A DNA stretch of 64,000 bases from a virus. Lineage: Duplodnaviria > Heunggongvirae > Uroviricota > Caudoviricetes. Positions 17,114 to 27,416 of the stretch are shown here, one piece after another. A program made the translations under genes and the position numbers. Position 1 is the stretch's first letter. Each line of letters begins with the position of its first letter. The notes under the pieces were generated by a model. It was not told the DNA's origin, ran no database searches, and saw only the letters and a program-made list of their open reading frames with translations. The stretch lies in the IMG/VR virus record IMGVR_UViG_3300046524_000235. One strand, 5' to 3'.

Positions 17114-17485
17114 TTACAGACAACGCTCAATCACGTTTGCGATTTGCTTGAAGCTCAGCCTATCCGTATCATTCAGGTTTACCAGGGTAGTTGCCTGACC
17201 ACGATACGTAACATTGATATCAGTAGGCTCTGCTGCATCTTTCTCGCTTGCAACCTCCATCAAACCTGCCCACTCTACAACTGCAGGAGGAAGATGCCCG
17301 AATGCGTCCATATAGCTAAATTTGCTAGTCTCTTTTGCAGCAAGTTCCGGATGCTCTTGAGCATGAATGTTGCATAGAACGCCGAGGCAACAGAATCCAA
17401 TATCGTCACGGAGTTGGCCAGTAGTACGGGGGTAGTCACCGCTGCGAAGAGCTTTGAGCCACTTAGTTTTTACACGCTTTTTCAT
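17114..17485 (-). CDS. CCLGVL-family paralog P8
   Basis: KWLKALRSGDY, CCLGVLC, WAGL, LNDTDRLSFKQIANVIERCL. Confidence 0.6.
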   Translation of the reverse strand: MKKRVKTKWLKALRSGDYPRTTGQLRDDIGFCCLGVLCNIHAQEHPELAAKETSKFSYMDAFGHLPPAVVEWAGLMEVASEKDAAEPTDINVTYRGQATTLVNLNDTDRLSFKQIANVIERCL

Positions 17486-17514
17486 TTCAATTCTCGTTTA
17501 AAGTTGTTTACGAC

Positions 17515-17874
17515 TTACAGTTGTGCTTCAATAAGATCAGCGATTCCGGAAAATCCGGGATTCAAGCTAGGGCTATCGTTGAGAGTCCAAAGATCTTTCT
17601 TTGAGCCTTCGAACATTACCTTGCCATCATCATCAAGGCCGGCCCACCTACGGACTTCATCTGCAAGCATTCCCGGCGAATTTCCGTAAACAACCACTCC
17701 CTCAAGACCGTCGGGGTAGTGAAATCCCTTGCTCTCAGGATGCTCTTTGAGATGAAGTTCACAAAGAACGCCGAGGCAACAGTGACCTTCAGTCTTTTTA
17801 AGCTGACCTGTAGTCTGCTTGTACTCACCGCTACGAAGAGCGGCTACCCATTTTGCTTTTACCACTTGGTTCAT
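17515..17874 (-). CDS. CCLGVL-family paralog P7
   Basis: KWVAALRSGEYKQ, CCLGVLCE, WAGL, LNDSP…IADLIEAQL. Confidence 0.6.
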   Translation of the reverse strand: MNQVVKAKWVAALRSGEYKQTTGQLKKTEGHCCLGVLCELHLKEHPESKGFHYPDGLEGVVVYGNSPGMLADEVRRWAGLDDDGKVMFEGSKKDLWTLNDSPSLNPGFSGIADLIEAQL

Positions 17875-17876
17875 AT

Positions 17877-18233
17877 TTAAAGATCGTACTTAATAAGATC
17901 AACGATTTGTGAAAACGGCATATCGTGGTCGTTAAGGTTTGAAAGCCAAACTTCTCCGCCTTGCCTATTCGTGATCGACAATCCCCCGTCGAAAGACGCA
18001 AGACCAGACCACTTTTTAACTTGTACAGGCAAGTTACCTTCCGCTTTAAGAATGAGCTTCTTACCATAATCGAAATTGGAATTAACCCACGGCTCGCCCG
18101 TTTCCTTGGAATAGATATCGCAAAGAACCCCAAGGCAGCAGAACTGTTCATCTTTGTTGAGATTGAACTTTCCCTGCTTATACTCTCCGCTCTCAAGAGC
18201 AGCAATCCATTTCTGTTTGACTTCTTCGTTCAC
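17877..18233 (-). CDS. CCLGVL-family paralog P6
   Basis: KWIAALESGEYKQ, CCLGVLCD, WSGL, LND…FSQIVDLIKYDL. Confidence 0.6.
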   Translation of the reverse strand: MNEEVKQKWIAALESGEYKQGKFNLNKDEQFCCLGVLCDIYSKETGEPWVNSNFDYGKKLILKAEGNLPVQVKKWSGLASFDGGLSITNRQGGEVWLSNLNDHDMPFSQIVDLIKYDL

Positions 18234-18574
18234 AGTTGAGCCTCGATAAGGTCTGCGATTTGGTGAAAGTTGTATCCACGGCCATCATTAAGAAAAGGGA
18301 TAGACGAATGCATCGAATATCCTTCAACCTTAAATCTTATAGCCTGAAAGTTAACATCAGCCCATTCAGAGATATGGGAAGGAGGAAATCCTTCCATCGA
18401 ATCAAACGATTGCTTCTTAGCACCAGTCTCTTTATCATGAACCTCGCACAAGACACCAAGGCAGCAGTGAGATGTACTACCATCTACCTCGTTTTGCTTA
18501 AGCCTATACCGGGTCTGTTTGTACTCCCCGCTGCGCAAGGCTTCAACCCACAGTTTCTTTACACGTTCGTTCAT
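18230..18574 (-). CDS. CCLGVL-family paralog P5
   Basis: LWVEALRSGEYKQ, CCLGVLCE, LND…FHQIADLIEAQL. ATGA overlap with the neighbour. Confidence 0.6.
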   Translation of the reverse strand: MNERVKKLWVEALRSGEYKQTRYRLKQNEVDGSTSHCCLGVLCEVHDKETGAKKQSFDSMEGFPPSHISEWADVNFQAIRFKVEGYSMHSSIPFLNDGRGYNFHQIADLIEAQL

Positions 18575-19011
18575 AGCGCGTATTTGATAACGTCAGCGAT
18601 TTGAGAGAAGGTGAGACCGGAGTCGTTCAGAGTTGCCAGAGTGAAGTAGTCGTATTGATTTATAGGATCATCTCCTTCTACCCAGCTCTTAGCCGGAACC
18701 ACTGCTGGGTTCTCACCTTCGATGCCTGCCCAATCTTGGACTTTCTTATCAAGAGTCTTACCATTACCCTCGAAACGGAAAAGCGGTTTGTTGAGCAATT
18801 CCGTTGGGTAATAGTCTTCGTCATCGACAATTTCATCAAGTGGCTTAACAGTGTGCGGTTCCCACTTGGCACCTTGATTCTCCTGGATATACAGATCCGT
18901 GAGAACTCCAAGGCAGCACATGCCTTCACCGGTATTAAGACACTTCGTGGCTTGTTTATACTTACCACTTTCCAGTGCCCACACCCACTTTTCTTTGACT
19001 TGTTCGTTCAC
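18571..19011 (-). CDS. CCLGVL-family paralog P4
   Basis: KWVWALESGKYKQ, CCLGVLTD, WAGI, LNDSGLTFSQIADVIKYAL. Confidence 0.6.
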   Translation of the reverse strand: MNEQVKEKWVWALESGKYKQATKCLNTGEGMCCLGVLTDLYIQENQGAKWEPHTVKPLDEIVDDEDYYPTELLNKPLFRFEGNGKTLDKKVQDWAGIEGENPAVVPAKSWVEGDDPINQYDYFTLATLNDSGLTFSQIADVIKYAL

Positions 19012-19391
19012 AGTTGAGCCTCGATGATGTCAGCGATTTGGTTGAAGTCGAACGACAAATCATCGTTCAAGTCCATCAAGTTGGAATTACGAGACCTAAT
19101 ATCGGCCTCTTCGTCGGAAAGAATAACCGGAGCATCCCCATGATTCGCAAGAATACCGGCCCATGCTCCAACTTCGCTAGGAAGAGACGTGTATTCTCTG
19201 TCAAACCTGTACCGTCCCAACTTAGCATCGAACTCCCATTTGAACTCTGGAAACTCTTTGGAGTAAACATCACACAGAACACCGAGGCAGCAGAAGCCTT
19301 GATTATCCTTGAGTGAGTATTGGGTCTGCTTATACTCCCCGCTTCGAAGCGCAGTAAGCCACTTGGCTTTAACTTCTTGATTCATCTTCAT
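19008..19391 (-). CDS. CCLGVL-family paralog P3
   Basis: KWLTALRSGEYKQ, CCLGVLCD, WAGI, LNDDLSFDFNQIADIIEAQL. Confidence 0.6.
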   Translation of the reverse strand: MKMNQEVKAKWLTALRSGEYKQTQYSLKDNQGFCCLGVLCDVYSKEFPEFKWEFDAKLGRYRFDREYTSLPSEVGAWAGILANHGDAPVILSDEEADIRSRNSNLMDLNDDLSFDFNQIADIIEAQL

Positions 19392-19786
19392 TACAGAAAC
19401 GCCTTGATAAGATCTGCGATTTCAGGAAAGGTAATGCCTTCGTCGTTCAGAGCTGCAATACTTGTGCTGATGTCGGCTTCCGGAATAGGTTCAGGATCTT
19501 TCCCTATAAAATTTGCACGTTCAGCGAACGGAAGATACGGAACATTTGTGTCAATACCGGACCATGCCTGAACATCTAGAGGGGTTAGGTAAACCTCTCC
19601 ATCGAAACCAGGCTTGCCTTCATCTTCAATGAATTCCCACTCCAGGCCATGTTCTTTTGCGTAAATATCTGTCAGAACTCCTAGGCAACAAAAGCCGCCC
19701 TGGCCATTGTTCAAACAGCTCTTACCTTGGCTATATTCGCCGCTAGTAAGAGCTTCAACCCATTTCTGTTTGATTAGTTCATTCAT
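19391..19786 (-). CDS. CCLGVL-family paralog P2
   Basis: KWVEALTSGEYSQ, CCLGVLTD, WSGI, LNDEGITFPEIADLIKAFL. Confidence 0.6.
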   Translation of the reverse strand: MNELIKQKWVEALTSGEYSQGKSCLNNGQGGFCCLGVLTDIYAKEHGLEWEFIEDEGKPGFDGEVYLTPLDVQAWSGIDTNVPYLPFAERANFIGKDPEPIPEADISTSIAALNDEGITFPEIADLIKAFL

Positions 19787-20229
19787 TACAGAAACGCCTT
19801 GATAAGATCTGCGATTTGAGGAAAAGAAATACCAGCGTCATTTGCGCCAGCTACGCTTTCGTGGTATTCGGACATTTTGTCTTCATCAATCTCAATGTCT
19901 TCGCTATTGTGATCTTCGTCACGAGGAATAAAAGGAAGAAGAGGAATCGGTTCTTTCAAACCAGCCCAGTCTCTTACTATGGAGGTAAGTACTCCAGCTT
20001 CATCCCATTCATTAGGATTCCCACCAGGAGCATCCAGTGCATACCGCGTAACACCTGCCTTAACTCCGTAATCGCTCAGTTTCCACTTGCCACCATTTTC
20101 CTTGATGTACAGATCCGTGAGAACACCGAGACAGCACATTCCTTGGCCATCGTTAAGACAACCTTTAGTCTGTAAATATTCCCCGCTGTTCAAAGCTTCA
20201 ATCCATTCCTGCTTAATTTGTTCGTTCAT
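19786..20229 (-). CDS. CCLGVL-family paralog P1 (start at internal Met MNEQIK)
   Basis: EWIEALNSGEYLQ, CCLGVLTD, WAGL, ANDAGISFPQIADLIKAFL. The track ORF runs to 20334, but all paralogs begin MNExxK. Confidence 0.55.
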   Translation of the reverse strand: MNEQIKQEWIEALNSGEYLQTKGCLNDGQGMCCLGVLTDLYIKENGGKWKLSDYGVKAGVTRYALDAPGGNPNEWDEAGVLTSIVRDWAGLKEPIPLLPFIPRDEDHNSEDIEIDEDKMSEYHESVAGANDAGISFPQIADLIKAFL

Positions 20230-20375
20230 GGTCTTGATCCGGTATAGGTTATTATTACAATACAGGCTAACGCAATTGCGACGCCCAGTGTCCAAACTGA
20301 TGCCTTTAGAGCGGCCTTCATTTTGAGAAGCCAAAAAAGAGAGTGTAGAATTAAAGAGCTACTTCTTATACAACT

Positions 20376-20402: not shown

Positions 20403-21020
20403 TTAGTCGTCGTGCTTGCCGTCGTAATGACCTTTCCAGTACCCTTTATTCAATTCTCCGTTTATTGCCTTAACAAGAGTTTGAGCGGGAGCTTCTCTCA
20501 GAGCAAGCATCATTGCGAAGTTAGCAATATCGGTAGGGTCACCCTTGTACAAGTGTTCAACCAACATATCTGCAAGTTTATCAACACTGCACCTTTCAGG
20601 ATTGTCCCAACCGCCACGACCTTTCTCCCGAGCTTTAGCGAGCTTCGCTTTCATCATTGCTGCAAACTTATCCACAGCAACGTCGTCGGGATGAGGTTCT
20701 TCAACGGGTTGTTTGAAGCCCTGAAACATCTTCCTCAACTCTTCCATTCCCGCTTCAACTTGTCGAGCAGCTTCTGCAAAGGCCTCATACTGAGCAAATT
20801 GAACCGGAGACTTTTCATGTCCCAGAGCTTCAAGCATCATCTTCAGATCTTGCAAAGCAATTTCTCTATTCTTGTGCTGAGACCTGTGCGTATCACATGT
20901 AGCAGAAGCTCCTGTCGGGATATGAGTTGCACGAACCCCTACCCCCATAGAGGAGCCTACCCACGTTCTAGGCTCCGTATAAAACACATCTAACTTAATG
21001 TCTTTTGGATCAAGTTCCAT
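20403..21020 (-). CDS. release-factor (RF-1/GGQ-domain) homologue lacking the GGQ motif
   Basis: VRATHIPTGASATCDTHRSQHKNREIAL aligns to RF1 [28 protein letters not shown]. The position of SGAGGQHVN is occupied by PRTWVGSSMGVG, so there is no GGQ. Confidence 0.6.
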   Translation of the reverse strand: MELDPKDIKLDVFYTEPRTWVGSSMGVGVRATHIPTGASATCDTHRSQHKNREIALQDLKMMLEALGHEKSPVQFAQYEAFAEAARQVEAGMEELRKMFQGFKQPVEEPHPDDVAVDKFAAMMKAKLAKAREKGRGGWDNPERCSVDKLADMLVEHLYKGDPTDIANFAMMLALREAPAQTLVKAINGELNKGYWKGHYDGKHDD

Positions 21021-21273
21021 TTTTAGTATCTCTCATTGCATAGGCGAAGTCACCAAGGCTTGAGGCTTCTTCTGCCATTTGTTTAAGTTCTTTGATTCTT
21101 TCGGCCAGCGTAATCACTGCCTGAGCCGATGTGCTGATTACACCTTCAGCTTTGTACTTCTCCGCCAGCGCCAGAGCTTCGTTGATTGTCATTGTTGACA
21201 TTCTCCGTTTCGTCTTTGTAAAGATGAGCCTCACAGAACATGAAAGCTCGTCCCAGTTTGTCCACATGCACAA
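21010..21273 (-). CDS. hypothetical protein (87 aa)
   Basis: Intact ORF. Confidence 0.35.
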   Translation of the reverse strand: MCMWTNWDELSCSVRLIFTKTKRRMSTMTINEALALAEKYKAEGVISTSAQAVITLAERIKELKQMAEEASSLGDFAYAMRDTKNGT

Positions 21274-22408: not shown

Positions 22409-23248
22409 TCAGTTTGCTTTGAACTGAAACTGGGTGCTTGCACCGGAACCGAGTTGATAGACCGGAAGTTTACCGTCCCATTTCTCGATCCACATCTGTT
22501 GCAGGATTTCCGGATTCTTGGCTAGTGCTTGACCACGAATAACCGTAGCCTGAGCATCGTTTGCTGCGATCTTCAGATCAGCATCCGAGTTTGCAATACG
22601 CTTTGCAGCTTCAGCCTGCGTCTTCTGCAGTTGGTTTTGCGAAGTGATTGCATCCATCTTTGCTTGTTGCTGTGCATTGATAGAAGCCTGGATTGCTTCC
22701 GGCCAATGGAAGGCACCGACGTTCGAAAGAAGCTCTACCGTCAGGCCATTAGGTGCTGCACGCTTGATAAGTTCAGCGTTGACCTTCGACATGAACGCGG
22801 GAATGTCATTGCTGATTTCATCGAACGTCAGATTGCCAGCAACTTCATTCAGGCTGTCACGAATCAGGTTACGAAGCGGACCCATCGTAATGCCATCAAG
22901 GTCTTTGTGATACTTCTGGAAGACGAGCGGAGCATTGTCTGCCGATATGTGGTACGAAATGCCGAAGTCAGCGTTGATGGCTACGCCGCCCTTTGCTTGA
23001 AACGTTACCGATTCATCGCTCGGATGACCTTCTTCCGGAGCCTTGCTGTACACGTAGTTTTCCGTGAACGTCGGATACTCGTACACAGTCGTGTTCCAGC
23101 CAGTAAAGTAACGGCCAGGGCCAAGAACCTTGGTTTGTACGCCACGGTCGCTGCCGTACATGTCTACCTGAACACCTACGAAGCCCGTTTCGACTTTGCT
23201 ACAAGCAGCGAGAAGCAGGGCTGCGATGATGAGGAAAATACGCTTCAT
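22409..23248 (-). CDS. SPFH/band-7 (prohibitin/HflK-like) lipoprotein
   Basis: MKRIFLIIAALLLAAC|S lipobox, then an SPFH-like domain and a Gln/Ala-rich coiled-coil. Start moved from 23314 to the MKRIF Met. Confidence 0.55.
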   Translation of the reverse strand: MKRIFLIIAALLLAACSKVETGFVGVQVDMYGSDRGVQTKVLGPGRYFTGWNTTVYEYPTFTENYVYSKAPEEGHPSDESVTFQAKGGVAINADFGISYHISADNAPLVFQKYHKDLDGITMGPLRNLIRDSLNEVAGNLTFDEISNDIPAFMSKVNAELIKRAAPNGLTVELLSNVGAFHWPEAIQASINAQQQAKMDAITSQNQLQKTQAEAAKRIANSDADLKIAANDAQATVIRGQALAKNPEILQQMWIEKWDGKLPVYQLGSGASTQFQFKAN

Positions 23249-23442
23249 TTCTTGGTTTTGCCTTTGAGAAAAAAGTGCCACACACAGAATGCTGTGAGTG
23301 GAATTGTGAGCCACAGGAGCGGGACGAGTACAATCAGATCTCCGCCATCATTCACTAACGACTTCGTTAGCGGCAACAGCAGAACCAGAAAGTACAGCGT
23401 CGCCAGAATCCCGTAAGAGACGAGAATGAGTTTCTTGTACAC
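23245..23442 (-). CDS. small membrane protein (65 aa)
   Basis: Two TM helices. Confidence 0.35.
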   Translation of the reverse strand: MYKKLILVSYGILATLYFLVLLLPLTKSLVNDGGDLIVLVPLLWLTIPLTAFCVWHFFLKGKTKK

Positions 23443-23885: not shown

Positions 23886-26030
23886 TTATGCAAAGAACGC
23901 CTTGACTGCACGACCCAGACGAATCCAGAAACCATCATCGCTGGAATAGCGAGCAGGTTCGATGAACTCAAACTCTTCTTCGTGATGTGCAGCGATTGCG
24001 CTGAACGACATGTCCGTGTTGCTGGTGCCCAGTTGGAACACAGCTTCTTGGAATGCCTCACCCTTTTCCAGCACCAACGTGAAGTCACTGTACTGAGCCG
24101 TACGGCCATCGCGCAGAGCCAGAGCATGTGCATTGCGGCACACGTTCTTGATCTGACGACCGTTCACTTCGTAGCTCGACAGATCCCAAATTTCGTCTTC
24201 CGTGAGGACTACGTCATTCAGGTTCAGGTTGTTTTCCCAGATCTTGTAACGATCACTTGCTTCGAGGCCAGGGAAGTTGATGGCCATGCTGATCCGCGAA
24301 TAGAACGCCTTGTCGATGTTCTTCGCACGGTTCGAGGTGAGGAACAGAACACCTTGGTAGTATTCCAGCAGACGCAGGAACACACCGACCATAGCGTTAC
24401 GTTGGATATTGCTATCCGTACGTGCTTCCATGAAGATGTCACATTCGTCAAGCAGCAGCACTGCGTTCCAGGTCGAAGCCACGTCCAGGATTTCACGCAG
24501 ATTGCCTTCCAACTCTTCTGCGGACGTTCCCAGTTCACCGACACCAACCATGTACAGCGGACGCTTCAGGTACTCTGCCGTAACTTCTGCAGTCAACGTC
24601 TTGCCCGTACCCGGCTCACCAGCCAGCAAGAAAATACAGCCGCCGCCCTTACCATCGATGATGTCCGGACGAGTGCTCTTCTCAAGCTGTGTTGCTACCA
24701 GTGAGAGAATCATGTTCTTCTGTGCTTCTTCCATCACTAGCTTGTCGTATGCATCGCTGCGGTACGCAATCTCGCTGATGTTTTCCACCAGCATTTCACC
24801 CCAGACTTTCGACAGGAACGAAAAGCCATAGACATACGGCGAGAATTGGAGATAGACTGATTCGTCGATGCTGACCGATTCCGACTTAGGCTTGTAACCA
24901 TAGCCTTGCTGATCCTGCGTACCGCCGAAGTACTTGTTATAGTTCGGATCCATTACCCGCATCGCTGTGAAGTCAACCATCACACGACCAGTCGAACGGA
25001 AGGCGGTGTCGCTCCAGTAACCACGGCGAATAAGATCACCCTTGTAAGCCATGTACGACGACTTCGACGTAAATTCGACTGCCTTCTTGCCACGAGCGAT
25101 GAGCGACTGCTTCAGCTCTTCGTTGTTCTTGATAGGCGTGAGGCCGAGTTCATTGAGCGACTTCTTACCTTCGAAGCCACCGAAGTAATACGAGTGACGG
25201 AACTTCTGAATCTCAGCACCGTTACGAGCGTACATGTGACCTGTTGCTTCGAGATACGGGCCAGCCATGCTCATGCGTTGATTTGCCGTGAAGGTACTGA
25301 TACCGAGCGATGTGCTGCCGTCATTCAATGCAAACTGGATGCCAGCTTGCGAAAGAAGAACCGAAAGTTCGTCGTACGAGAACTGGTCTTCAGCCTTCAG
25401 ATTGTCGATGTTCCCGAGCGTGCTTGCGTAGAACTCGTCAACTTCTGCAACAACACGGCTGACTTCCGCATGAACCCGGTTAGCCATGTCTTGATCGTCA
25501 TCGTACATGTACGCAACGTCGCTAAGATAACTCTCAATGGATCCTTTGCAACGGAAGATCTGCAGGCCAGAGATAAGTACCTGGGCACGGGCCATGTTGA
25601 ACGGACCTTCATTACCAATGTAGTTGAATTCATTGATGTGAAGGTTATACGATACGTCACGAATGGCATCGCCGTATTCTTGCAGGCTCTGACGGATGTC
25701 ATGCGGAATGTACACACTGATCTTGCCTGCACGTCCCTTGAACACTTCTGCAGGAGGACGCTTGCTGATTTCGACTTCAGCATTTGCTTGTTCTTGCTTC
25801 GCAGCTTCGACAAACGGGTCCTTCTGCTTCGTGATACCAAGAGTTTCAAGAGCCGCCTTGATCGATTCCGAAATCAGGGCTGCTTGAGTTGCTTCGGACG
25901 TGGTGGGGGCCGCAACTGCAGCTGCATTCGATTCCACGGCTTGAGTTTGGATTTCGCTCACGTTAATTTCCTTCGTTTCCATATCGATTATGCCTTGCGG
26001 CTTGGGTTGGCTAAACAAATTGACAAGCAA
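23886..26030 (-). CDS. AAA+ ATPase with large N-terminal domain (714 aa)
   Basis: Walker A (LLAGEPGTGKT), Walker B (LLLDECDIF), sensor (TSNRAKNIDKAFYSRI). Confidence 0.6.
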   Translation of the reverse strand: MLVNLFSQPKPQGIIDMETKEINVSEIQTQAVESNAAAVAAPTTSEATQAALISESIKAALETLGITKQKDPFVEAAKQEQANAEVEISKRPPAEVFKGRAGKISVYIPHDIRQSLQEYGDAIRDVSYNLHINEFNYIGNEGPFNMARAQVLISGLQIFRCKGSIESYLSDVAYMYDDDQDMANRVHAEVSRVVAEVDEFYASTLGNIDNLKAEDQFSYDELSVLLSQAGIQFALNDGSTSLGISTFTANQRMSMAGPYLEATGHMYARNGAEIQKFRHSYYFGGFEGKKSLNELGLTPIKNNEELKQSLIARGKKAVEFTSKSSYMAYKGDLIRRGYWSDTAFRSTGRVMVDFTAMRVMDPNYNKYFGGTQDQQGYGYKPKSESVSIDESVYLQFSPYVYGFSFLSKVWGEMLVENISEIAYRSDAYDKLVMEEAQKNMILSLVATQLEKSTRPDIIDGKGGGCIFLLAGEPGTGKTLTAEVTAEYLKRPLYMVGVGELGTSAEELEGNLREILDVASTWNAVLLLDECDIFMEARTDSNIQRNAMVGVFLRLLEYYQGVLFLTSNRAKNIDKAFYSRISMAINFPGLEASDRYKIWENNLNLNDVVLTEDEIWDLSSYEVNGRQIKNVCRNAHALALRDGRTAQYSDFTLVLEKGEAFQEAVFQLGTSNTDMSFSAIAAHHEEEFEFIEPARYSSDDGFWIRLGRAVKAFFA

Positions 26031-26155: not shown

Positions 26156-26172
26156 ACATAGCACACGCCAAC

Positions 26173-26243
26173 TAAAACAAGGGGGACTCGAACCCCCAGC
26201 GTCACAAGAGTTTGTGCTGCTCTACCGATTGAGCTATTGTTTT
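26173..26243 (-). tRNA. tRNA-like element / probable pseudo-tRNA (anticodon not assignable)
   Basis: All-A·U acceptor AAAACAA/TTGTTTT, good D arm and GGGGG-TTCGAGT-CCCCC T arm. The only clean anticodon stem (CACAA/TTGTG) encloses a 4-nt loop. Confidence 0.35.
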
Positions 26244-26264
26244 AAAAAGATATTCTCTTTTACA

Positions 26265-26290: not shown

Positions 26291-26533
26291 TTAATTGATT
26301 AACGCTTCGCCGTCAACAATCGTCAACGTACCTTTAACAACGCATGCCGCTTTGGTATGTACGTTATCGGGAGTCTCTTTTGTTGTAAAGCCAATACCCG
26401 GCGAGATATGTATGTGAGTGACGTACTCCGTCTTACCGTTAACTTTGATGACCCAAGGAGGAATCGATTGATCCAGATTGTGCGCTTTGTTAAAGTGAAA
26501 GACAATTTTATCCTTTTTCATGCTGCCCTCCAC
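26291..26533 (-). CDS. hypothetical protein (80 aa)
   Basis: Intact ORF. Confidence 0.35.
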   Translation of the reverse strand: MEGSMKKDKIVFHFNKAHNLDQSIPPWVIKVNGKTEYVTHIHISPGIGFTTKETPDNVHTKAACVVKGTLTIVDGEALIN

Positions 26534-26832
26534 AGACGCATATTGCTAAACAACTTTCGTTGTTCGTCAGTGACGGGTGCAGTGGTGATAGACGTGTAAC
26601 CCATGTCATCGTCTGGTTCGAAGAAGTCATAGAATTGAATGTTATTTGCCCAGATTTTATCTCTGAGTTTCATAAGCTCTTCTTTGTTCTTAACTTCGAG
26701 CAGAATGAGTGACGGAATTTTTCCGTTAAGGGGGTTTGACTCGTTTCCAGCATGAAAAGCTGAATGAGCAGTCTGAACGATTTGATCAGCGAGGGGAATA
26801 TCTTTGCGAATGATTGAATAGATGTAAGACAT
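26518..26832 (-). CDS. hypothetical protein (104 aa)
   Basis: Intact ORF. Confidence 0.4.
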   Translation of the reverse strand: MSYIYSIIRKDIPLADQIVQTAHSAFHAGNESNPLNGKIPSLILLEVKNKEELMKLRDKIWANNIQFYDFFEPDDDMGYTSITTAPVTDEQRKLFSNMRLWRAA

Positions 26833-27393: not shown

Positions 27394-27416
27394 GATGAAC
27401 CTTGTGGTGAAAACGA

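Follow-up and report, generated by a model that had tools for sequence, protein, structure and literature searches.

A stand-alone release-factor domain 3 homolog with Arg-Thr-Trp in place of Gly-Gly-Gln in an uncultured phage

Few catalytic motifs in biology are as conserved as the Gly-Gly-Gln (GGQ) tripeptide of release factors (RFs). This report concerns a gene of a Caudoviricetes virus, IMG/VR record IMGVR_UViG_3300046524_000235, of which a stretch of 64,000 nucleotides (referred to below as the window) was analyzed. The gene (positions 20403-21020, minus strand) encodes a 205-residue protein whose N-terminal part is homologous to domain 3 of class I RFs and carries Arg-Thr-Trp (RTW) in place of Gly-Gly-Gln. 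The favored interpretation, to which a probability of roughly one in three can be assigned, is that the RTW protein is a non-catalytic mimic of RF domain 3 that would place its hydrophobic loop tip in the Gln pocket of the peptidyl-transferase center (PTC).

In canonical RFs, the backbone torsion angles of the two GGQ glycines are accessible to glycine alone, and glycine mutation abolishes peptide release; the Gln side chain contributes by packing, with further van der Waals contacts to U2506, A2451, and A2452 made by its N5-methyl group (PMC5799190). The RTW protein shares with domain 3 of RF2 and RF1 its sequence, the beta-beta-beta-alpha fold, and the THxPTG and RSQHxN[RK]xxA motifs, but has RTW for GGQ, a remodeled entry to and exit from the loop, an added phage helical domain, and, within its 205 residues, no domains 1, 2, or 4 (codon recognition, PxT or SPF). 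Like the codon-independent rescue factors ArfB (YaeJ), ICT1, and mtRF-R (C12orf65), it is small, has an RF-1 domain at its core, and lacks domains that read codons; however, GGQ is retained in those factors, and their binding depends on a basic C-terminal tail (which in ArfB and ICT1 binds the empty mRNA channel) or on a partner (MTRES1), whereas the tail of the RTW protein is acidic and helical.

Two known RF homologs that lack GGQ may be compared. Balon, an aeRF1 homolog, is a hibernation factor that keeps the PTC inactive (PMC10901736). As a GGQ-less RF homolog that reaches the PTC, it offers a conceptual precedent for a non-catalytic mimic, but it belongs to the archaeo-eukaryotic RF1 superfamily, consists of three domains, is delivered by EF-Tu, and is cellular. 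PrfB3 of land-plant chloroplasts is derived from RF2, has lost GGQ, and has a non-termination role, stabilizing the petB mRNA (PMC5897788). Unlike the phage protein, which retains domain 3 only and conserves a hydrophobic residue where Gln would be, PrfB3 is full length and has also lost SPF.

Release-factor homology and the position of the GGQ tripeptide

Direct reading of the DNA shows the RTW gene to be complete, with an ATG start codon, 205 sense codons, and a TAA stop. The ATG overlaps the 3' end of the preceding small open reading frame (ORF; 21010-21273) by 11 nt, and the sequence GAGAGA is located 8 to 13 nt 5' of it, the usual layout of a translationally coupled phage operon. The stop-to-stop frame ends at 21032, leaving room for at most 4 additional upstream codons, so the first strand of RF domain 3 is where the protein begins. 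The product is a two-domain protein.

Residues 1-68 (20817-21020, minus strand), which comprise three beta strands and helix alpha7, are homologous to domain 3 (the "GGQ domain") of class I RFs. An earlier note on this DNA had aligned the first 70 or so residues to the peptidyl-tRNA hydrolysis domain of RF1 and had named a Pfam search and the structural comparison of an AlphaFold model as checks; both bear the assignment out. The Pfam RF-1 model PF00472 was matched with E=2.4e-9 and 37.6 bits, above the gathering cutoff of 35, and phrog_20323 ("RF-1 domain peptide chain release factor") matched residues 3-64 with E=2.8e-14. A phmmer search of PDB aligned residues 2-71 to residues 233-303 of Escherichia coli RF2 (E=4e-8), and a profile of 20 family members compared with PDB retrieved RF2 (9e-23), RF1 (1e-20), PrfH (8e-11), C12orf65 (8e-8), and ArfB (0.14). 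These E-values favor RF2 and RF1 and thus point to an RF1/RF2-type domain 3, rather than ArfB, as the source of the phage domain. The AlphaFold2 model of the protein (pLDDT 83.7) has strands at residues 8-14, 27-33, and 39-42 and a helix at residues 48-66; in a Foldseek comparison with PDB it retrieved release factors only, with a probability of 1.00 and root mean square deviations of 2.3 to 3.0 Å over 65 to 70 columns, and it reached a TM score of 0.78 against 6c4h_v, a 63-residue PTC fragment of RF2. The PrmC-RF1 complex 2b3t_B was among both the sequence and the structural matches.

Membership in several known groups can be rejected. The NCBIfam models of RF1 and RF2 gave local matches (about 1e-8, 34 to 35 bits) far under their full-length cutoffs of 370 to 423, which, along with the domain-3-only architecture, rules out a full-length RF1 or RF2. 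The protein is not an ArfB or ICT1 (NF006718 ArfB, 13.1 bits versus a cutoff of 100; no GGQ and no basic tail), nor is it a PrfH, or RF-H (TIGR03072 release_prfH, 29.9 bits versus a cutoff of 166.65; no GGQ). RtcB, the partner of PrfH, was not found among the neighboring ORFs scanned, a scan that covered some of the neighbors.

Gly-Gly-Gln occurs nowhere in the 205 residues, nor does either alternative frame of the loop DNA encode it. The RTW tip is unchanged in two independent assemblies, L010 and L013, so both a hidden GGQ and a sequencing error are excluded. Pairwise alignment of the loop to RF2 by phmmer is ambiguous by one residue; the position of the tripeptide was therefore fixed from D11, a conserved Asp in the first strand. 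Eight residues separate D11 from W20, and the same eight-residue spacing separates the respective Asp from Gln in the ortholog P0005 (...RIDCYGGAVGGQ) and from Trp in the ortholog P0004, which has an RGW tip (...RIDTYSSKPRGW). By this offset, R18-T19-W20 (AGA ACG TGG; 20961-20969, minus strand) is the equivalent of GGQ, and both glycines and the glutamine are replaced in the RTW protein. The claim that the loop lacks GGQ thus survives, as a second reading of the DNA turned up no GGQ elsewhere and the profile searches found the RF similarity significant; the residues that had been quoted as standing in its place, "PRTWVGSSMGVG", are correct, except that the tripeptide R18-T19-W20, and not the whole of that stretch, is the equivalent. 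The remodeled catalytic loop comprises residues 14-28 (YTEPRTWVGSSMGVG; 20937-20981, minus strand) and fits a phage-type consensus, [YWF]-P-x-x-P-x-[GST]-G-[WMF]...G-V-R. In phage loops the tip is preceded by [YWF]-P-x-x-P and followed by G-[VI]-[RK], where RFs have R-S-S-G and S-A-V-R, respectively.

A phage family with substitutions at the Gln position

The RTW protein is a member of a large phage family, phrog_20323, whose proteins are limited to domain 3 and often have the Gln replaced by Trp, Met, or Phe; it is not the singular oddity that it had seemed from this one sequence. A phmmer search with residues 1-72 against 1.84 billion cluster representatives yielded 679 matches at E<1e-3. 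The best 150 of these and eight two-domain homologs were examined, and GGQ is absent in 130 of the 158, a proportion that is biased, since the list was ranked by similarity to a GGQ-less query. Column statistics were taken from 129 GGQ-less representatives, leaving out P0001, whose identity to the query is 97%. The Gln column contains Trp in 41 of them, Met in 37, and Phe in 26, which amounts to 104 of the 129 (81%), as compared to a background of 5.7% for these three residues together; W20 fits this subgroup. The column before it has Gly in 83 of the 129 proteins (Thr in the RTW protein), and the one further back has Gly, Ser, or Thr in 90.

Around the loop, the GGQ-less set conserves the framework to the same degree as genuine RFs do. 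In the THxPTG motif (T32-H-I-P-T-G37; 20910-20927, minus strand), H33 is conserved at 99%, P35 at 98%, and G37 at 93%. In the RSQHxN motif, with which helix alpha7 begins (R46-S-Q-H-K-N51; 20868-20885, minus strand), the values are 94% for R46, 91% for S47, 82% for Q48, 89% for H49, and 98% for N51, with 95% for A55 further along the helix, and the overall conservation of the motif is about equal to that in the GGQ set. Because the loop has been replaced while the framework has been kept, the pattern argues for an altered function at the same site rather than decay.

Members of the family are widespread among cultured phages. The N-domain was detected by tblastn in approximately 140 cultured phage genomes, including those of T4-like Acinetobacter phages (such as ZZ1), Septimatrevirus and Otagovirus phages of Pseudomonas, and phages of Agrobacterium/Rhizobium, Vibrio, and Listeria; the RTW protein is 33 to 42% identical to the annotated members. 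The annotations that these currently bear, by homology alone, are release factor 1, release factor 2, and "putative peptidyl-tRNA hydrolase." None of the translated isolate proteins has GGQ: the tip is SNW in Acinetobacter phage ZZ1 (p0148), SAW in Pseudomonas phage TehO (TehO_001; phage 73 ORF037), GGM in phiPsa300 (gp006), SGL in Rhizobium phage IC12 (CDS0030), and GGW in Vibrio phage 193E37-1. The isolate proteins share with the RTW protein the truncation to domain 3 and the bulky hydrophobic residue for Gln, but are 65 to 165 residues long and have different tails or none. Scanning IMG/VR by pattern gave 80 loci, many of which encode phage proteins of 64 to 130 residues in which the phage-type loop has an intact GGQ (WPPRxxGGQxVG...GVKVTH). 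Since such loops are common, GGQ was probably present in the ancestral phage mini-RF, its glutamine having been replaced repeatedly since. Full-text literature searches, which left most subscription journals outside their coverage, found no publication on GGQ-less phage RF-1 domain proteins; the RF-1 domain superfamily itself is known, and the loss of GGQ in its phage members is apparently undescribed.

Ten metagenomic proteins have the same two-domain architecture as the RTW protein, and four of them are encoded on long contigs in the gene order of the window, namely AAA ATPase, Band_7 lipoprotein, small genes, RF-like gene, five or six DUF8296 paralogs, and ThyX; IMG/VR contributes further loci of this clade (L013, L014, L020, and L021). 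The order is common to six related phage contigs. The tips at this syntenic locus are GGQ (P0005 and L014), TGW (P0010), RGW (P0004), and RTW (the window, L010, and L013), and those on short contigs are GGQ (P0006), GFQ (P0007 and P0008), GGM (P0003), and SNW (P0009). A neighbor-joining tree, which was built from only 161 columns and should not be over-read, does not cleanly separate the GGQ and Trp forms.

The RTW version is under purifying selection. In comparison with L010 (97% amino acid identity), 21 of the 27 differing codons are synonymous and dN/dS is 0.06, with dN of 0.006 and dS of 0.35 in the N-domain. In comparison with L013 (78% identity), the overall dN/dS is 0.14, with 0.07 in the N-domain and 0.13 across residues 13-31 of the loop. 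With dN/dS of 0.06 to 0.14, the GGQ-less domain is evidently kept by selection. All 27 codon differences from L010 fall within codons 36-105, with none in codons 1-35 or 106-205, a clustering that suggests a recombination mosaic rather than uniform divergence.

The C-terminal module and the genomic surroundings

The earlier note described the C-terminal 130 residues as helical and unrelated to ArfB tails. Both descriptions hold (residues 69-205 have a net charge of -4), and the region can be divided further. Residues 69-108 (20697-20816, minus strand) form an acidic linker with a long helix (residues 72-99) and are an insertion relative to P0003 to P0010, which most orthologs lack; they are followed by a phage-specific helical domain of about 95 residues (109-205; 20406-20696, minus strand) with the pattern HPDD...KGRGGW...H-x2-KGD-x2-D-[IV]-AN-x-[AC]-MM. 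This C-domain is not an ArfB-type tail, because it is not basic (net charge -1). The whole protein is acidic, with a pI of 5.9 and a net charge of -1 in the N-domain.

The C-domain matches phrog_8298 (3.6e-23) and phrog_16645, and its invariant residues are D112, K126, R131, G134, G137, W138, C144, H156, K159, D164, and N167. It is a mobile phage helical module, which also occurs alone and inside proteins annotated as HD-domain or XRE-family proteins. Among RF-domain proteins, it is limited to the window clade and two further GGQ-less proteins, P0127 and P0154. Assignment as a MazG-like domain or a dATP/dGTP diphosphohydrolase, which would call for a profile or fold match and an EExxE...D metal site, was not supported: there was no Pfam match and one weak PDB profile match (2p06, AF_0060, E=0.12). 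One GGQ-less family member carries PF18909, to which no link from this C-domain was drawn. Residues 136-138 (20607-20615, minus strand) read Gly-Gly-Trp inside a K-G-R-G-G-W loop in which G134, G137, and W138 are invariant in 39 homologs; the likeness to the GGW tips of mini-RF loops may be a coincidence.

The plausible genes of the 64-kb window are all on the minus strand. They include genes for ThyX, an AAA ATPase, an SPFH lipoprotein, and the peptidyl-tRNA hydrolase PTH2, and there are 21 tRNA genes. No near-identical relative of the window was found among 50,697 phage records, and its primase-like protein is 31 to 35% identical to those of Vibrio and Salmonella phages with 180- to 187-kb genomes, so the window is part of a large uncultured phage genome. 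Directly downstream of the RTW gene are seven or eight tandem DUF8296 (phrog_18067) paralogs of about 115 to 180 residues each (17114-20334, minus strand), with a KWxxALxSGxYxQ...CCLGVL motif; the array, in 5 or 6 copies, is kept in all related contigs. The tRNA island contains a bona fide peptidyl-tRNA hydrolase of the archaeal/eukaryotic PTH2 type (31588-32001, minus strand; Pfam PTH2, E=6.7e-32), so the phage already has a free peptidyl-tRNA hydrolase. Another ORF (26518-26832), tried as a Pth2-like candidate, had no Pfam match and was rejected.

Several neighbors are of interest in their own right. The AAA ATPase gene (23886-26030, minus strand) has PADLOC matches to IetA-like proteins (9e-18), a small gene (28191-28511, minus strand) encodes a protein with a phosphopantetheine-attachment (acyl-carrier-like) signature, and a T5orf172/GIY-YIG-like gene (30445-31005, minus strand) lies amid the tRNAs. 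At 26172-26244 (minus strand), ARAGORN reports a tRNA to which it assigns no identity, the anticodon having just two bases, "ct". On visual inspection, its anticodon arm reads CACA(A)/(T)TGTG with a loop of 4 to 6 nt instead of 7, and related contigs have tRNA-Met only at this place; either degeneration of a tRNA or an unusual way of decoding could explain it. In the related locus L012, an ORF at 1519-1800, 8 kb upstream of the RF-like gene, has a weak match to the Acb2/Tad1-hairpin Pfam family (anti-CBASS/anti-Thoeris sponges).

Beyond the synteny of the window clade, all-against-all BLAST of the ORFs within 3 kb at the 80 IMG/VR loci revealed no conserved partner gene; family members are encoded in arrays of small accessory genes. 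Two observations at other loci may be added. In phiPsa300 gp006 (L006, 3998-4390), the GGM mini-RF is fused to a fragment resembling the C-terminal domain of ribosomal protein L7/L12 (MMIKNVREKVGCGLKEAKEAI), which PF00542 matches with E=1.5e-5 and 25.6 bits, slightly below the cutoff of 25.9. An SPFH/Band_7 lipoprotein gene (phrog_200) is located near the mini-RF gene both in the window clade (22409-23314 of the window, minus strand) and, as the gene right beside it, in the unrelated phage IC12 of 150 kb (L007, 4235-5314); either shared ancestry of a gene block or functional pairing could account for this.

The suppressor tRNA of the window, proposed in the earlier note as a partner of the protein whose co-occurrence should be checked across phages, is an amber suppressor with the anticodon CTA (27405-27480, minus strand), 6.4 kb upstream of the RTW gene. 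Every member of the clade has a suppressor tRNA at the equivalent position, approximately 6 to 7 kb upstream (such as L003 2751-2826, L011 2668-2743, L012 2204-2281, and L014 3153-3228), with the anticodon CTA in L003 to L005, L013, L020, and L021 and TCA (opal) in L011, L012, and L014. All loop/suppressor combinations are present (GGQ/CTA, GGQ/TCA, xGW/TCA, and RTW/CTA), so that loop type and anticodon are uncorrelated within the clade. When ARAGORN was run on the 80 IMG/VR loci with a radius of 10 kb, a suppressor was found in the window clade only, plus one locus with a full-length RF. Among GGQ-less loci, 1 of 25 had a suppressor (L013, itself of the window clade), and any tRNA was present at 3 of the 25, versus 11 of 39 GGQ loci. 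As this survey finds the suppressor essentially in the clade alone, its co-occurrence is clade specific rather than a property of the family; a family-wide link is ruled out, and the constancy inside the clade is compatible with a functional link there. Stop codon usage in the window is TAA 52, TGA 27, and TAG 3 (of 82 ORFs), and all three TAG-terminated ORFs are overlapped by longer ones. Recoding of TAG was nevertheless rejected for the window: the long ORFs are all intact under code 11 without a sign of in-frame TAG, which is merely avoided as a stop.

Possible functions of the GGQ-less domain

The earlier suggestion that a GGQ-less mimic could enter the ribosomal A site or the PTC without releasing the peptide remains the best reading, as a prediction from sequence; its further proposal of a termination competitor is weakened, there being no codon-reading domain for it to rest on. 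Because the hydrolytic mechanism needs backbone torsions open to glycine only, canonical peptidyl-tRNA hydrolysis is not expected of the RTW protein, which would be a pseudo-enzyme. It would most likely dock where RF domain 3 docks, on the A-site side of the 50S PTC, and W20 would fill the pocket formed by U2506, A2451, and A2452, the normal seat of the N5-methyl-glutamine of RFs. The preference for Trp, Met, or Phe on a conserved RF framework suggests that the tip still enters this largely hydrophobic pocket just to occupy it. Occupation without catalysis could block release factors, ArfB-type rescue factors, or aminoacyl-tRNA on whichever ribosomes the protein reaches and hold these with their peptidyl-tRNA intact, while the helical C-domain might provide an isolated domain 3 with an extra anchor or serve as a targeting or affinity module. 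Candidate ends include host shut-off, shielding of phage translation from a host response, and more stop codon read-through. Counted in favor of a non-catalytic mimic are the conservation pattern, the signature of selection, the L7/L12 fusion in phiPsa300, the neighborhood of tRNAs and PTH2, and the example of Balon. Its extension to the family, in which phage RF domains would be PTC "plugs" that insert a tip of x-G-(Trp/Met/Phe), or RTW in this case, into the A2451/A2452/U2506 pocket much as methyl-glutamine and A-site drugs do, is conceivable and somewhat more doubtful.

A number of points weigh against a mimic at the PTC. On its own, the GGQ domain of YaeJ/ArfB fails to bind ribosomes, and the delta101-140 mutant is found wholly in the soluble fraction (PMC3950681); a stand-alone domain 3 therefore needs some other anchor, and many family members are just 66 to 80 residues long with no visible one. 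The acidity of the RTW protein is unusual for an rRNA binder, its C-domain has no recognizable RNA-binding fold, and elsewhere this domain is fused to DnaJ-type zinc fingers, Lar-like zinc ribbons, and ASCH/DUF3850 domains. The retention of GGQ in the orthologs P0005 (syntenic) and P0006 suggests either a shared function that is independent of the tripeptide or a function that differs among orthologs. Finally, the conservation of THxPTG and RSQHxN could serve folding purely, and a general blocker of the PTC would harm the phage too.

The failure of the isolated GGQ domain to bind ribosomes speaks also for a non-ribosomal role, in which the protein would act as an RNA-, tRNA-, or protein-binding adaptor or as an oligomeric small-molecule sponge similar to Acb4, its likeness to RFs being a matter of ancestry. 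PrfB3, which became an mRNA-stabilizing factor after losing SPF and GGQ, and the placement of family members in small accessory-gene arrays without a conserved neighbor point the same way. This explanation is nonetheless somewhat unlikely, given that the RF motifs are kept at 90 to 99%, above the usual need for upkeep of a fold, that an L7/L12 fragment is joined to one member of the family, and that PADLOC, a search for defense and anti-defense genes, gave no match for the protein. The sole link to Acb4 is a fold resemblance reported in PMC11722364; there was no match to PF13876 at E up to 10 and none among the PDB profile matches, and membership in this anti-CBASS sponge family, a mark of which is the binding of cyclic dinucleotides by tetramers, was rejected as a literature analogy with no sequence signal.

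To our knowledge, the only other macromolecular partner of the GGQ loop is PrmC (HemK), which N5-methylates its Gln. The phage domains might be decoys of this enzyme, with a non-methylatable hydrophobic residue making a dead-end ligand and the GGQ orthologs competing as substrates; too little methylation of host RF1 and RF2 would lower their activity and so favor suppressor read-through or programmed recoding. The presence of the PrmC-RF1 complex among the matches, the amber or opal suppressor at a conserved spot in the clade (which fits an effector on both RF1 and RF2), and the near absence of TAG as a stop in the window agree with such a decoy, which would also account for the members of 66 to 80 residues that have no ribosome anchor. 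The idea, which comes from reasoning rather than from a tool result or a paper, is nevertheless unlikely: the suppressor association is not family wide (the one GGQ-less locus having it belongs to the clade), and the strongly remodeled loop flanks, with the PxxP entry and Gly for Ser/Ala before VR, may not fit PrmC.

Retention of catalysis is quite unlikely. In that case, the family, the Trp, Met, and Phe variants included, would consist of codon-independent peptidyl-tRNA hydrolases or rescue factors, similar to ArfB or mtRF-R, that act on stalled ribosomes or split 50S subunits. GGQ is indeed kept in orthologs and many phage mini-RFs, the glycine before the hydrophobic residue is kept in 83 of the 129 GGQ-less members, and the gene lies in an island of tRNAs and PTH2; in addition, Shaw and Green in 2007 and Korostelev and colleagues are said to have found the Gln side chain of RFs to be less critical than its backbone NH. 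In the RTW protein, however, both glycines are replaced (R18 and T19), a change expected to abolish release (PMC5799190), a basic tail is missing, the scores with the ArfB and PrfH models are far under the cutoffs, and the phage already encodes PTH2. The one rival that is clearly disfavored is decay. The catalytic motif has been lost and the loop varies in sequence and length among orthologs, as it would in a functionless mini-RF remnant; but dN/dS values of 0.06 to 0.14 (0.13 in the loop), an ORF intact in three assemblies, and a tip Trp kept across the distant phages TehO and ZZ1 as well as P0004, P0009, and P0010 make such a remnant most improbable.

A selected RF framework in which the Gln has been exchanged implies an unrecognized action on either the active site of the ribosome or the enzyme that methylates RFs. 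If the proteins do plug the PTC, phages could use them to freeze, protect, or reprogram ribosomes, to shield peptidyl-tRNA from the release or rescue factors of the host, or to favor suppressor tRNAs. As PTC binders, they would constitute a new class of viral translation modulators and possible templates for PTC-targeting peptides; should they not bind the PTC, the annotations "peptide chain release factor 1" and "peptidyl-tRNA hydrolase" would still need correction. Since the family is carried by cultured T4-like phages of Acinetobacter and by phages of Pseudomonas, the question is directly testable.

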